A DNA stretch of 64,000 nucleotides, taken from contig CAVYSY010000045.1 in the NCBI GenBank assembly GCA_963771175.1, forward strand, positions 1 to 64,000. Direction: 5' to 3'. A program made the position numbers. Below are positions 23,601 to 32,600 of this stretch, piece by piece. The stretch is from an uncultured delta proteobacterium (GTDB lineage Bacteria; Myxococcota; Myxococcia; Myxococcales; Myxococcaceae). The stretch's first letter is position 1. Each line of letters starts with the position of its first letter.

Positions 23601-26600
23601 GGACCTGCCGAGCATCGGAAGGCCGATAGCGAATACGAGCGTGCACCTGCTGGACGGAAGACGGGGAGCCGGTGCCGGTGGGAGTGCCGGGGGAGCTGTA
23701 CATAGGAGGGGCGGCGGTGGCGCGGGGCTACCTGCACCGGCCGGAGCTGACGAAGGAGCGCTTCGTCGAGGACCGGGTGGGAGTGGCGCCGGGAGGGAGG
23801 CTGTACCGGACGGGGGACTACGCGCGCTACCTGCCGGACGGGAGGATTGAATTCCTGGGGCGCAGGGACGCGCAGGTGAAGGTGCGCGGCTTCCGCATCG
23901 AGCTGGCCGAGGTGGAGGCCGTACTCGCCAGGCACCCCGCGGTACGCGACTGCATCGTGGAGGCGCGGGACGCCGCCTCGGGCCAGAAGCGGCTGGTGGC
24001 ATACGTCGTCGGGAAGGACGGGCAGGCGCCAGCCACCGGGGAGCTGAGGGGCTTCCTGAAGGAGAGGCTGCCCGAGTACATGGTGCCGTCGGTCTTCATG
24101 CGTCTGGAGGCCTTCCCGCTGACGCCGAGCGGGAAGGTGGACCGCAAGTCCCTGCCGGCGCCGGATTCCACGCGCCAGGAGCCATCCCAGTCCTTCGTGG
24201 GCCCGCGCACGGCGCTGGAGCTTCAGGTCACCCGCATCTGGGAGGAGTTGCTGGGCATCCAGCCCATCGGAGTGCACGACAACTTCTTCGAGCTGGGAGG
24301 CAACTCGCTGCTGGCCATCCGCCTGCTGTCGAGACTCCGAGCGAGCACGGGACGGAACCTGCCGGTGGCGGCGCTGTTCCAGAACGCGACGGTGGAACAT
24401 CTGGCGGAACTGCTGCGCAAGGAGGCAGGGCCGTGGTCTCCGCTGGTGGAGTTCCGGGGATGCGACGGGAGGAGGCCCTTCTTCTGCGTGCATGCGGTGG
24501 GAGGCACCGTCCTGGGCTACGTGGAACTGGCTCGACTGCTGGGGCCGGAGCAGCCCTTCTACGGACTCCAGTCGCGGGGGCTCGATGGCGAGCAGGAGCC
24601 CTGCGACTCAGTGGAGGAGATGGCGGCGCTCTACCTCGAGGCCATCCGGAAGGTGCAGCCCCGGGGGCCATACCTGCTCGGAGGTTGGTCGATGGGCGGC
24701 ACCATTGCCTTGGAGATGGCGAGGCAGCTCCAGCAACAGGGAGAGCAGGTGGACCTGCTGGCGCTCATCGACAGTTACGACCTCGCTCCGATCATGGCCC
24801 GGGTGCCGCCCGAGCAGCAGGAGGCTTCGAGGTTGGCAGCCCGGTTCCATGGGGAGCTGCCACTCCCGGAAGAGGGGCGCCAGTCGTCGCGGGCCCTGCA
24901 ACGGGTGCTCGAGAAGAACCTCCTCGCTGCGTGGAAGTACGTACCCCAGCCGTACACGGGGTCGCTCACCCTCTTCGAGGCCAGTGAGTCAGCTCTGCGA
25001 GAGCAGGGCGGGGGGCGGTTCGCCGCCACCCGGGAGGAGGTGCACCCGCTCCAGGGAGACCACTACTCCATCCTGCGTGGCCCGCGCGTGGAGGAACTGG
25101 CGGCGCGGCTCCGGGACTGCTTGGAGCGGGCGATGCTCCAGGCCGAGAGTCCTTCCAACCCGAGGCGCTCCACTTGACCGGGTGAGCGGCCTACTGGGCA
25201 ATCCCACCTGTCTCGCGAGTAGCGGGGCTGTCAATGAATTCTGGAGAGTCGTAGCTATTGACCCTTGCCGAGTTGTCGACCATTGTGCGCCGCCAACATG
25301 GGGACCGGCCTGGATTGGGCGGCGCAGCGGCTTGTGCATGAGGTTGTCGCGACTACCTCTGCCGCAGCGATGGCGCCAGTGACGTGTGGAGAATTGGTGC
25401 AAGGGGTTGTGGGGGGGCGAGACTTCCTCATTACGAGCCCCATCGCGCTTCACAGTCGGGTGACAGTGGACCTGTCGCCGGAGTTCGAGGGGGTCCGTGT
25501 CGAGTCCGAGCTCAACTTCGGCAAGACGCTGAAGGCCGTGAGCCTGCTGCTGCGGACCTTGGGGGCGAAGCACCTGGGAGCCCGGCTGCGGGTGGAGACC
25601 CCCGTGCCTCGCAGCAAGGGGCTGGCCTCGAGTACGGCGGATCTCGCGGCCGCGCTGCACGCGTGCGCGGAGGCGCTGGGACATGCGCTCCCTCCCTATC
25701 TGCTGTCGCGCATCGCCGCGGATATCGAGCCTTCGGATGCCGTCTTCTTCCCAGGCTCGGTCATCTATGATCACCTGCGAGGCGAGATCCTCGAGTTTCT
25801 CGGGGCGCCTCCCCCGCTGTCATTCGTGATCATCGACACGGGCGGTGAGGTGGATACGCTCGGCTTCGATCGGGAGCGGGCCAGGGCCCATGCGCGCGCC
25901 TCCGAGGCGCAGGTGGCCCGCGCCATGGCACTGGTGCGGCAAGGCTTCCGCCAGCAGGTGCCGGCACTCGTGGCCGAGGGAGCCACCCTCAGCGCGCGCT
26001 GCCACCAGGCGGTGCTCTTCAAGCCCTGGCTGGAGGAGTTGCTGCGAGCCACGCGCGAGCTGGGCGTGCTGGGGATCAACTGCGGCCACAGTGGTACGGT
26101 GCTCGGGCTGATGTTCGACCCGACCCGGCACGACGGCGCCCCCATCGCCGAGCGGGCCGCGCAGATCACTGGCCCCGGGCGGCTGCTGGGCATTCACCGC
26201 CTCATCTCCGGGGGGACCCGGCTCCTGCGCAGCAGCCGCCAAGGGCTCTCCCAGGCACAGCAGTCCTCCCTCGACACGCTGGGCGAGCCCCTCACGCGTG
26301 TCCCGGTGCGGGATGGGATGGCGATCGCGTTCGAGCATGGGCCGGAGCGGCGGCGCATCTTCGTGTTGCCGGATGGACAGCGGGTCTCGGAGCCTCCCGA
26401 TCCCCTGGAGGGATTGTGCGAGCCCCGCGCCGTGCCGGTGCCGAGGGAAGGCGAGGCATGGGAGATGCGTGTCTCGCGTCTCTCCGAGGAGGAGGGGGTG
26501 GTGCGGTACCTGCCAGGGGAGAACGCCTCGGGGCTGCGCGCCGCGCCGCGCCTGTTGTCGCGGGCGCTCTTCGAGGCCGCCTTCACCCTCCAGGACGGGG

Positions 26601-29600: not shown

Positions 29601-32600
29601 TCGTCCGGCGCCGCCTACGTGGTGGCCTCCTGGCTGGCCGAGCAGTTCGCGCCAGAGCAGCATGTCGTGGCGCTGATGCCGGACCGGGGGGATCGCTACT
29701 GCGAGACCATCTACTCGCGGAGCTACCTGGCCGAGCATGGGTTGGTCGGGGTGGAGGCGGCGGCTGCCCCCACGCCCATCCGCTATGGCGTGGACGTGGC
29801 CGATCGCTGGAGCCATGCCTCCTTGCCCCATGAGGGCTCCGTCCCCTACTACTCGCCTTCCGTGATGCGCAGCAGCGTGTTGACGCGGGCGCTGGAAATG
29901 GAGTGAGCGGGTGAGTCATTTCGTCTTCGTCGAGAGCAACACCACCGGGACGGGGCGGCTGGCGGTGGAGCGCCTGCTGGCCCAGGGCGAACGGGTGACG
30001 TTCATCACCCGGCAGCCGGAGAAGTACCCGTTCCTCGTGGGCAACACGGCCCCCCACCTGCGGGTGTTGCGTGTGGAGACCAACGACGCGGCGGCGGTGG
30101 AGGCCAGCGTCGAGATGCTGGCGAGCGAGGGGCGCGTGGATGCGCTGCTCACCTTCTCCACGTTCTACGTGCCCACGGTGGCGGCCGTCGCGGCGCGGCG
30201 TGGCCTGCGCTACCTCCATCCGCGCGCGGCTTATGCGTGTCACCACAAGCACGAGGCGCGCACCCTGCTGCGCGCGGCGGGGCTGCCCGGGCCGGACTTC
30301 CACGTTCTCTCCTCCGAGGCGGAGGCGGAGCGGTTGGCTGGAACGCTGCGCTTCCCGTGCGTCGTGAAGCCACCCGCGGAGAGTGGTAGCACCGGGGTGC
30401 GGAGGGTGGAGACGCCCGAGGAGCTGCTGGCACACTTCCGCGCCCTGCACTCGCGCGCCGTCAACGAGCGCGGCCAGCCCTTGCTGGGGGAGGTGCTGGT
30501 GGAGTCCCTGCTGGAGGGGCCGGAGTTCAGCGTGGAGACGATGACGCTGGCGGATGGCACCACCCACGTCCTCGGCATCACCCAGAAATACCTCTCCGCG
30601 CCGCCGCACTTCGTGGAGATGGGGCATGACTTCCCGGCGGACTTGTCCCCCGAGCGGCGGCGCGCGCTGGAGGAGGCCGTGCTCGCGGGCCTCGGGGCGG
30701 TGGGCTTTGACTTCGGCCCGGCCCACACGGAGATCCGCTTCACCCCCTCCGGCCCCGTCATCATCGAGATCAACCCCCGGTTGGCTGGTGGAATGATCCC
30801 GGAGCTGGTGCGGCTGTCCACCGGAGTGGATCTGCTCACCGCGATGCTGGACCAGCTCCTGGGGCGGCCGGTGGACCTCACGCACACGCGCCAGGAGGTG
30901 GCCTGTATCCGCTTCCTCACCTCGGAGCGCCCCGGCGTGCTGGCCCGCGTGGCGGGGCTGGAAGAGGCCTCCCGGCTGGAGACGGTCCGCCAGGTGGCCG
31001 TGGACAAGGCCGCGGGGGCCCGACTCCGCTCGCCCGAGAGCGCGACGGATCGGCTGGGTTTTGTCATCGCCAGCGGACCGGAGCGTGAGCAGGTTCTCGG
31101 GGATGCGGCGCGGGCCCTCGGCCTGCTCCGGGTGGAGCTGGCCTCCGCCGAGGGGGGGTCGTGACAAGAGGGTGGGGAGGGCTTCTCGGGGCCTTGCTCG
31201 TGGCGACAGGGGCGGACGCCCAGGGGGCGCGTGAGCTGGAGCCGTCGCCCGCGCTGGTGCGGACGGTGGGATATATCGACACCCTGCGAGCGGTCTCACC
31301 GCCCACGGTGGATGGGAGCCTGGACGAGGAGGCCTGGCGGCAGGCGCCCGTCTTCCGCGACTTCCGCCAGACCCTCCCCGAGCCCGGAGCCGCTCCCAGC
31401 CAGCGGACCGAGGTGCGTGTCCTCCACGACGACGCGTACCTCTACTTCGGCATCATCTGCTTCGACACCGAGCCCGGGGCGATTGATCGGCGGCTGGGGC
31501 GCCGGGATGCGCCACCTACCTCGGATATGGTCACGGTATTCCTCAGCCCGCGCCCTGCTGCGCGCACGGGCTACGCCTTCAGCGTCAATGCCGCTGGGGT
31601 CCTCAAGGACAGCCTCATCACCGATGACAACCAGTTCACCGATGACTGGGATGCCGTCTGGGACGGAGTCTCCTCGGAGCGCTCGGACGGCTGGGCCGCG
31701 GAACTGCGCATCCCGCTGTCGCTGCTGCGTTTCGACGAAGACGTGCTCCAGCAATGGGGGGTCGGTGTCCGGCGCCACCTGGCTCGGACCCAGGAGGTCA
31801 TCGACTCGGCGGAGCTGCCTCCGGGCGCCAACGCGCTCATCTCCCGCCTGGGCTCGCTGCAGGGCCTGTCCGGGCTGAGCGCCTCGTCGTCGCTGGAGCT
31901 GAGCCCCTACGTCGCCCCCCGCCTCGTGCGCCGCCCTCAGTACACGGAGCCCTCCCGCCCATGGCCTCGCCTCTTCAACCCCGCGGCCGACGCGGGACTG
32001 GACTTCCGGTGGGCCCCGACGCGGGACCTGGCCCTGGTGGGCGCCCTCAACCCGGACTTCAGCCAGCTGGAGGCGGATCAGCTCCGGGTCAACCTCAGCA
32101 ACTTCGAGCTCTTCTTCCAAGAGCGGCGCCCCTTCTTCACCCAGGGGATGGAGCTGTTCGTCCCGGTGAGTGCCAACGAGGGGCGGGCCCGGCAGATCCT
32201 CTTCTACTCGCGCCGCATCGGGCTGGATGCGCCCATCCTCGGCGCGGTCAAGCTGACGGGCACGGTGGGCGAGGAGCTGGACATCGGCGTGCTGGACTCG
32301 CTGGTGATGGGCGCAGCGGATCCGGCCAAGGAGGCAGCGCTGGTGCGGGGAGAGGCTCCGGACGAGTCGAACCCCCGCCGGCAGGTGGGCTTCCACCCCA
32401 AGCGCCCGTTCCACCTGGGGCTGGATGACGAGCTGCCCTCCCTGGAGCCGGTGACGCGCAACTTCCTGGCCGCGGTGGTGCGGCGCCGCTTCGGCGCCCT
32501 GGGCTCTGTCGGAGGCACGGTGGCGGCCGTCACCCCCTTCGCGGCGCCTTGCCCGCGCGAGGAGCCGGGACAGGCGCCGGACACCGTGGCGCTGGCGCGC

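Follow-up and report, generated by a model that had tools for sequence, protein, structure and literature searches.

A clade of YbaK-type deacylases linked to 2,3-diaminobutyrate-type operons, with one member fused to a threonine kinase in a myxobacterial NRPS cluster

The main finding of this analysis is a clade of YbaK-type deacylases, and not the gene fusion in which one of its members occurs. The fused member lies in the 64,000-nucleotide stretch of myxobacterial DNA that was analysed, henceforth referred to as the window. Its C-terminal domain belongs to an operon-linked clade of the INS superfamily (YbaK/ProX), as shown by sequence and by genomic context. The domain may act as a self-protective deacylase, with 2,3-diaminobutyrate (Dab)-charged tRNA(Thr/Val) as predicted substrate, and the chances of this reading are judged to be about even. 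The features of the locus are as follows.

25370..27271, + strand: fused gene, 633 aa from ATG 25370 (657 aa if from ATG 25298); threonine kinase, tandem barrel domain and INS/YbaK deacylase
25370..26224, + strand: GHMP kinase domain, aa 1-285; PduX/CobD-linked branch, predicted L-threonine kinase
26225..26719, + strand: middle region, aa 286-450; final ~100 aa fold in the predicted structure as two SH3-like (Tudor/KOW, DUF4222-like) repeats
26720..26756, + strand: fusion junction, with AGGAG at 26741-26745 followed by ATGA at 26753-26756
26753..27271, + strand: INS-superfamily (YbaK/ProX) domain, with Lys514, GXXXP loop 569-573 and the clade marks Asp600 and His603
27268..28771, + strand: argininosuccinate-lyase-like gene (DabC C-terminal role); its TTG start overlaps the upstream stop
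28782..29906, + strand: PLP beta-replacement enzyme, SbnA/cysteine-synthase-like (DabB role); best NCBIfam match the SbnA family, under cut-off
29911..31164, + strand: ATP-grasp protein matching the N-terminal half of PRK02186 (DabC N-terminal role)
31161..33800, + strand: DUF5916 protein, common to related clusters
33811..39410, - strand: ABC transporter fusion, M28 peptidase, HTTM-domain protein and 180-aa protein, common to related clusters
39407..46807, - strand: two-module NRPS; second A domain with code DALQIGHVDK, interrupted by a GNAT-like insert
46861..61987, + strand: further NRPS genes of the same cluster; first gene of 1811 aa with two adenylation-type domains, later part split into several ORFs

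The INS domain matched PF04073 with a score of 89 bits against a cut-off of 25.5. The hallmarks of the INS family are a conserved lysine and a GXXXP loop (PMC11286415). All 49 of 49 aligned sequences have Lys514, and the loop lies at G569-P573; the catalytic hallmarks are intact. The cut-offs of YbaK proper, the Cys-tRNA(Pro) deacylase, were missed (67.6 versus 153.25 bits for TIGR00011; 54.9 versus 243 bits for PRK10670), and the genome carries a separate YbaK-like gene on contig C33. It has three tRNA_edit domains besides the window's. The nearest solved relatives, ranked above YbaK, INS and ProXp-ala structures, were ProXp-x of T. thermophilus (2CX5/2Z0K; Foldseek E 3e-13 for 2cx5) and APE2540 (1WDV), with a sequence E of 1e-18, a TM of 0.81-0.88 by target length, and the lysine and GXXXP loop retained. 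Whereas ProXp-x is a stand-alone editor of 2-aminobutyrate (Abu) and alanine, the window's clade has GGGGD[E]xHM and MPTV marks and a Dab-type operon setting. Abu is Dab without the 3-amino group. The structure 2CX5 represents ProXp-x, an editor of Abu (PMC11295145).

In a quick tree of 224 rows, a clade of 115 rows (SH-aLRT 94) included all 18 members found beside Dab-type genes. Of 105 distinct clade rows, all have Asp600 and 98% have His603, one metagenome search pattern having included the Asp-His motif, while the 42 nearest outside rows have Asp in 14% and His in 12% at these positions and mostly Arg in place of Asp600. Among the 19 clade members with context, 18 sit in Dab-type operons, usually directly before the lyase, and so share the co-location with non-canonical amino acid genes that is typical of deacylases such as FthB and BesG; the 19th, on the 1.3 kb locus L121, adjoins a thioesterase-like ORF. 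The other 71 of 80 metagenome loci gave no kinase, lyase, PLP or ATP-grasp match. No report of this deacylase clade was found in the literature.

The cluster-type lyase was detected in 11 of 363 myxobacterial genomes (59-100% identity; 13 weaker matches at 31-34% were treated as ordinary ArgH). Ten of these eleven genomes have the deacylase directly upstream of the lyase and a kinase within 0-38 kb; the clusters are related and therefore do not count as independent cases. The eleventh genome, G227, is 100% complete in 40 contigs. Its cluster is the same, down to lyase, PLP enzyme, ATP-grasp and NRPS module, but the genome returned neither a threonine kinase match nor a clade deacylase. DabBC in the absence of DabA makes Dap (PMC10906522), and G227 is the one case of deacylase absence in a related cluster that would lack the mischargeable product. 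This joint absence, confined to one genome, fits removal of Abu equally well, and the candidate A-domain code is identical in G227. At two loci, L123 and L130, the deacylase is accompanied by lyase, PLP and ATP-grasp genes, and no kinase was seen within 8 kb. Six plasmid ATP-grasp matches were opened, two of which (L256, L258) were not Dab-type operons; the remaining four (L253, L254, L255, L257) are Dab-type operons with a kinase and no such deacylase gene within 12 kb, and no clade member was found on plasmids (best 39% identity). Since these four distant operons lack it, the deacylase is not obligatory; like L123 and L130, they count against a self-protective role.

The dabABC-type gene set of the window is complete: threonine kinase, cysteine-synthase-like PLP enzyme, lyase-like protein and ATP-grasp, the lyase being intact once an assembly error is discounted. 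On the basis of published DabABC chemistry, the operon would make Dab for the adjoining NRPS, with the kinase phosphorylating threonine, the PLP enzyme exchanging phosphate for aspartate and the lyase freeing Dab. The dabABC operon of Burkholderia thailandensis E264 (PMC10906522) likewise has kinase, PLP enzyme, ATP-grasp and lyase functions beside NRPS genes. In the window, in contrast, ATP-grasp and lyase are separate genes, the gene order is different, a deacylase is present, and the kinase is of the PduX/CobD-linked branch with extra domains. The main text of PMC10906522 does not mention YbaK or editing, as the earlier note had said, nor tRNA; its expression of DabABC in Pseudomonas acidophila, an observation on the side against self-protection, is described with no mention of toxicity or editing. 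The second A domain of the two-module NRPS is a candidate for the Dab/Dap-loading module. A-domain codes gave no separation of Dab from Dap modules, and DALQIGHVDK was not found in the literature. A promoter and terminator scan returned nothing above chance.

Dab differs from threonine in bearing NH2 where threonine has OH, and ThrRS or ValRS could therefore charge it on tRNA, although a search of literature listings gave no paper that shows such charging. The YbaK-type domain would then be a dedicated trans-editing deacylase that hydrolyses Dab-tRNA, in which Asp600 possibly holds the extra amino group of Dab. Precedents for the editing of host-made threonine analogues are FthB and BesG (PMC13149037). 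FthB, the fluorothreonyl-tRNA deacylase of Streptomyces cattleya, is likewise an INS-family deacylase in the cluster of a host-made threonine analogue; it acts on a different amino acid and is set apart by its description as ProXp-ST1-related (PMC11295145), whereas the window's domain is nearest to ProXp-x structures. BesG, AlfB and FuzB (Millar et al. 2026, PMC13149037) follow the same principle, in that a tRNA deacylase encoded in the cluster makes the producer resistant to its own non-canonical amino acid, which may also be an intermediate of a larger peptide, but they have the AlaX fold. That study mined AlaX only, and its main text contains no kinase, diaminobut-, Dab or YbaK. The link between editing domain and Dab-type operon, far stronger than the earlier note had shown, together with the joint absence in G227, therefore makes self-protection against mischarging the leading idea.

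The main rival to a Dab-tRNA substrate is that the domain has kept ProXp-x activity and clears Abu from tRNAs, as a cleaner for the operon's own by-product. Starting from phosphothreonine, the PLP enzyme forms an aminocrotonate intermediate that can break down by hydrolysis to 2-oxobutyrate, a compound converted to Abu by transamination. The nearest characterized family, ProXp-x, has Abu-tRNA as its substrate, joint absence with the kinase in G227 is explained as well, and GntG-type or threonine-aldolase-like genes near several clusters hint at threonine side flux. The gain by the clade of an invariant acidic Asp600, mostly Arg in close outside relatives and unneeded for a neutral substrate, argues against it, as does the distance of the domain from 2cx5 in sequence, and Abu removal is considered unlikely, if the most credible of the alternatives. 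Somewhat less probable still is that the domain edits another cluster product, such as Dap on tRNA-Ser or a hydroxylated amino acid, or that its target is no tRNA but a mis-loaded aminoacyl thioester on the NRPS. Its most constant neighbour is indeed the lyase and not the kinase, L123 and L130 have no nearby kinase, L121 pairs the domain with a thioesterase-like ORF, and DabBC can also yield Dap. However, G227 should be a Dap producer, since none of lyase, PLP enzyme, ATP-grasp or this NRPS module is missing from it, yet it has no deacylase, and the NRPS sets around clade members vary widely.

The fused protein itself has three parts: a PduX-type threonine kinase, a tandem Tudor/KOW-like domain that was previously overlooked, and the INS domain. 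A single open frame at 25265-27271 (+) contains GHMP_kinases_N (E 3e-10), GHMP_kinases_C (E 5e-4, slightly under cut-off) and tRNA_edit (E 2.7e-25) by Pfam. The start had been placed at 25397, which cuts the conserved CGELVQG motif; the start is therefore ATG 25370 or 25298. Kinase motifs are CGELVQG (6), PRSKGLASSTAD (80), IEPSD (119) and GHSGT (239). In an unrooted tree built without the E264 DabA, the kinase groups with PduX/CobD-linked kinases on one branch (support 100/98) and not with the kinases of other Dab-type operons; it is 36% identical to that of the dabABC-ordered operon L257. The name DabA, given to it earlier, thus holds as a role and does not imply orthology. PduX-type L-threonine kinases of cobamide synthesis are 37-47% identical across the kinase domain, and those checked adjoin cobD, cobS, cobQ or cbiE; the window's kinase, by contrast, heads a Dab-type operon, and a cobamide role was rejected in the absence of cobamide genes around it, though its branch is cobamide-linked. 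A related kinase in G141 and G139 occurs without lyase or deacylase, and these loci look like other pathways. A third conserved domain (model pLDDT 88) takes up the ~170 residues that separate kinase and YbaK; its best structural comparison gave Z 6.8 (rmsd 2.1, 48 aligned) with many ties. DUF4222 matched under cut-off (E 0.009-0.4); there was no NCBIfam match, no usable Atlas match and no Foldseek match at E<=0.001. A profile of this domain gave 24 matches, from which two repeat proteins (P0136, P0138) were left out.

The kinase-YbaK fusion is genuine. A single-base assembly error that did away with the stop at the ATGA overlap might be suspected, as single-base insertions are frequent in the assembly, with one ~750 nt downstream of the junction, and as ribosome site, ATG and old stop are all retained there. 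Contigs from two studies, at ~98-99% identity, nevertheless cross the junction in frame and gap-free: the X1 contig spans 25203-29000 (46 other letters, 1 gap) and the X2 contig 25200-27222 (32 other letters, 0 gaps), neither with an indel at the junction. Of the 84 substitutions, 40 were listed, and no stop arises from the 21 of these that fall in the fused gene. Unless a substitution outside those listed makes a stop in these strains, an artefact is thus ruled out, leaving an assembly error scarcely credible. The same comparison reveals an error in the lyase, which the earlier note had described as split by an indel. The frame is broken in this assembly, but the only indel listed is one base at 27506 that is absent in X1, X2 and X3; the extra base is therefore an error of this assembly and a real pseudogene is ruled out.

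Recurrence of the fusion was also borne out, with kinase and tRNA_edit both present in 7 of the 12 proteins returned, the window's included; the six others are 41-52% identical to it. They stand apart from the window's protein on both trees, so that more than one origin of the fusion is conceivable. It is possible, though improbable, that the fusion itself matters, the barrels, which resemble Tudor/KOW folds, forming with the editing domain a unit that binds RNA and makes kinase activity depend on how much mischarged tRNA is present. The nearest relatives, however, are unfused. The Stigmatella homolog was said to lack the domain, which is true of protein P0004 only: at the locus, in the two nearest genomes (G218, G216), YbaK is the separate, overlapping next gene (83-85% identical). 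P0004, P0010 and P0012 have the barrel without YbaK, P0135 joins kinase and barrel to a CobD-like enzyme, and unrelated proteins carry the barrel at their end, the kinase-barrel module also being found alone; most clade members are paired with other, barrel-free kinase types, and a barrel Z below 8 indicates a common fold only. The ATGA at 26753-26756 is the start of the once-separate deacylase gene, overlapping the former kinase stop, and the junction is 44-47 nt shorter than in G216/G218. Two translationally coupled genes would recently have been joined, fixing their co-expression; the deacylase would work independently of the kinase, and may still be made in free form from the ribosome site and ATG that were kept. 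Of the earlier proposal that the fusion is built-in protection against mischarging, the operon link and the lack of both kinase and deacylase in G227 support the protective part; the fusion gains no support as a meaningful feature, most loci having the domain as a gene of its own and the window's fusion keeping an internal start. The fusion is a minor architectural variant that seems incidental and of recent date.

Self-protective tRNA deacylases in biosynthetic clusters are an established idea, of which FthB was the one INS-family example found in the literature, and a substrate has yet to be assigned to several INS clusters. The clade described here offers a specific substrate prediction that is cheap to test, together with a candidate specificity residue. 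Tentatively, and at slightly less than even confidence, it may be a new INS deacylase family of at least ~100 distinct members that evolved a putative acidic pocket residue to strip the cationic diamino acid 2,3-Dab from tRNA. If so, it would be the first diamino-acid editor found in our literature search, would extend INS editing to diamino acids and would be evidence that Dab is a mistranslated threonine mimic. The deacylase could aid heterologous Dab supply, for example for C4-methyl monobactams, and the clade would mark Dab- as opposed to Dap-making clusters and flag Dab-containing peptide clusters in myxobacteria and uncultured lineages.

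Within the window, 25265–27271 on the forward strand is one uninterrupted open frame, encoding a predicted threonine kinase, a middle barrel domain and a putative YbaK-type deacylase of the INS superfamily in one protein:

ATG 25370 start, forward strand: fused kinase–barrel–YbaK gene (protein P0002, 633 aa)

An alternative start at ATG 25298 is possible and agrees with the N-terminus of the homolog P0004. In the fused gene Pfam recognised tRNA_edit (E 2.7e-25) alongside GHMP kinase domains, and in the genes that follow, in this order, Lyase_1/ASL_C2, PALP and ATP-grasp. The AlphaFold model (mean pLDDT 81.6, pTM 0.55) shows three units with low-confidence linkers between them. 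Recurrence of the fusion beyond the window, as proposed in the earlier note, was borne out, both domains being present in 7 of 12 proteins returned (window protein counted); P0004, P0010 and P0012 comprise kinase and middle region and nothing more, and P0013 and P0014 kinase alone.

The fusion was open to doubt because the window's assembly contains many single-base indels and because G218 and G216, the nearest two genomes (84–85% DNA identity across the operon), encode the YbaK in a gene of its own that overlaps the kinase gene at a TTGA. The window junction is 44–47 nt shorter than in these genomes, retains AGGAG at 26741 and ATGA at 26753, and leaves the former kinase end readable in another frame. 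Contigs from sequencing runs of two different studies span this junction without an indel there: the X1 contig covers 25203–29000 (46 other letters, one gap) and the X2 contig 25200–27222 (32 other letters, no gap). Of 84 substitution rows, 40 were listed, with 21 falling in the fused gene and none creating a stop. A single base at 27506, absent from X1, X2 and a third run, X3, is the sole listed indel. An assembly indel artefact is thus ruled out and the fusion is real; the lyase gene, reported earlier as split, does show a frame break in this assembly, but the extra base is an error and the gene is not genuinely broken.

In the YbaK tree the window domain nests within the unfused copies of G218, G216 and G203, and the remaining fusions are placed elsewhere on both the YbaK and kinase trees. 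The window fusion looks recent and incidental. The conserved feature, as opposed to this side detail, is the clade of operon-linked INS deacylases, which is the main point. A YbaK-domain search returned 154 stand-alone proteins at E<=1e-20; among the best 120 of these, the top names are Stigmatella, Cystobacter, Hyalangium, Melittangium and Corallococcus, and most others are metagenomic. The cluster-type lyase was found in 11 of 363 genomes of the order (59–100% identity), clearly set apart from 13 lyase matches at 31–34%. These myxobacterial clusters are kin to one another, and in 10 of the 11 (G000, the window's genome, and G218, G216, G203, G220, G200, G226, G195, G185 and G252) the lyase gene is immediately preceded by the deacylase. 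Kinase position varies: fused to the deacylase in G000 and G252, adjacent in G218 and G216, 4.5–26 kb off in G200, G220 and G203, and a C-terminal fusion on an NRPS 35–38 kb off in G226, G195 and G185. At L112:8425-17169, L115:8221-17055 and L118:8173-16941 (three genomes), a GHMP kinase is joined to the NRPS C-terminus, past the last carrier domain.

Genome G227 (100% complete, 5% contamination, 40 contigs) has identical gene order from the lyase on, with no kinase or deacylase in front. This kinase was not matched anywhere in that genome, no remnant was found in 80 kb, and the single tRNA_edit domain is located elsewhere. By their motifs, its four GHMP domains resemble galactokinase and mevalonate-pathway enzymes. 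Kinase and deacylase are thus missing together in a single instance. The G227 cluster closes with a gene for a class III aminotransferase and one for a GNAT (L248:18005-19264), and DVWE..ADDK A-domain codes recur; we take both to hint at 2,4-diaminobutyrate modules.

The metagenome set covered 80 loci out of at least 384 confirmed. The GGGGD[E]xHM motif occurs in 10 of the 80, nine inside the clade and one (L126) outside. Dab-type (2,3-diaminobutyrate) genes are adjacent in eight of these nine (L122–L125, L127–L130), and in L121 (1.3 kb) a thioesterase-like ORF comes next; none were found in the 71 other loci, 41 of which are at least 8 kb and many near-duplicates. This part is partly circular because one search pattern contained the motif; the 154 stand-alone proteins were chosen independently of it. 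In a 224-row tree, a 115-row clade (SH-aLRT 94, quick method) contains all 18 Dab-adjacent members and L121. Asp600 and His603 (numbered from ATG 25370) are present in 100% and 98% of 105 distinct clade rows, and in 14% and 12% of 42 near outside rows. The deacylase gene is optional, since four plasmid Dab-type operons (Streptomyces, Kitasatospora, Azospirillum, Rhizobium) include a kinase-like gene yet lack a deacylase within 12 kb. At L123 and L130 the query used found no kinase within 8 kb; a very divergent, long-branched GHMP kinase type lies directly upstream of the deacylase at L124, L125, L128 and L129. GntG-family/threonine-aldolase-like genes occur near Dab-type operons (L111:1087-2103, L253:13256-14302), with further candidates, by sequence start only, at L122:9381-10493 and L123:12456-13538.

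In an unrooted tree the window kinase groups with PduX-type kinases (support 100/98), which in the loci examined sit next to cobD, cobS, cobQ or cbiE, and not with kinases from other Dab-type operons (28–36% identity). The kinase–barrel module is also fused to a CobD-like enzyme in P0135 (849 aa, CobD/HisC-like PLP enzyme). The middle domain is predicted to form two SH3-like repeats (pLDDT 88), with Tudor domains as best structural match (Z 6.8) and a weak DUF4222 match; it is not specific to the Dab pathway, because it also ends unrelated proteins. Tandem barrels occur alone or C-terminally in P0137 and P0139–P0152 (116–508 aa, no Pfam family above cut-off). In Bdellovibrionota loci L005, L006 and L017 a PduX-like kinase is paired with an SbnA-like PLP enzyme, with a ~450-aa protein lacking an NCBIfam match between them in L005 and L006.

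In PMC10906522, the kinase yields phosphothreonine, the PLP enzyme adds Asp and the lyase releases (2S,3R)-Dab, and the PLP enzyme/lyase pair without kinase gives Dap. The same route would supply the NRPS at 39407–46807 (reverse strand). For its second A domain, with a code read by motif offsets as DALQIGHVDK, seven other clusters hold a relative, which in G226, G195 and G185 comes before the fused kinase. The last A domain is broken by a ~330-aa insert that weakly matches GNAT (E 0.0026), possibly making it an acetyltransferase-interrupted adenylation domain; the split AMP-binding_C pattern is common to four related clusters (L110, L112, L115, L230). A second NRPS region at 1–24000, with a thioesterase end at 25177 and sulfate-activation-like and efflux genes at 8–15 kb, carries many frame-breaking single-base indels; in G218/G216 it does not adjoin the operon. 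Beyond the window, ORF starts at G000:C45 86000–93000 resemble, by eye, a phage-tail-like contractile injection locus.

Free Dab is a threonine isostere, and synthetase chemistry suggests that it could be charged by ThrRS or ValRS. Known cases with F-Thr and beta-ethynylserine (PMC13149037) point the same way. The YbaK domain retains the Lys and GXXXP loop that define active INS editors (PMC11286415). The deacylase is very probably a dedicated accessory of the Dab-type operon, and probably a tRNA deacylase for an amino acid derived from the pathway. For Dab itself as substrate the chances are about even; the added Asp would suit its extra amine. The domain is nearest among structures to ProXp-x, a family that edits 2-aminobutyrate (PMC11295145), and this possible pathway by-product is an unlikely though conceivable substrate.

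Listings of largely non-subscription literature, and the main text of PMC10906522 (whose operon maps are in supplementary Fig. S2), gave no account of a Dab operon with a YbaK-type gene, nor did the listings show the product of the window's cluster. Clustered deacylases are established as marks of non-canonical amino acid pathways in PMC13149037. The earlier proposal of self-protection by a fused editing domain is partly supported: it is the leading idea for the operon-linked clade, with its 18 Dab-adjacent members, but is not supported for the fusion as such, the nearest relatives being unfused. The operon-linked INS clade would extend a known self-protection strategy.
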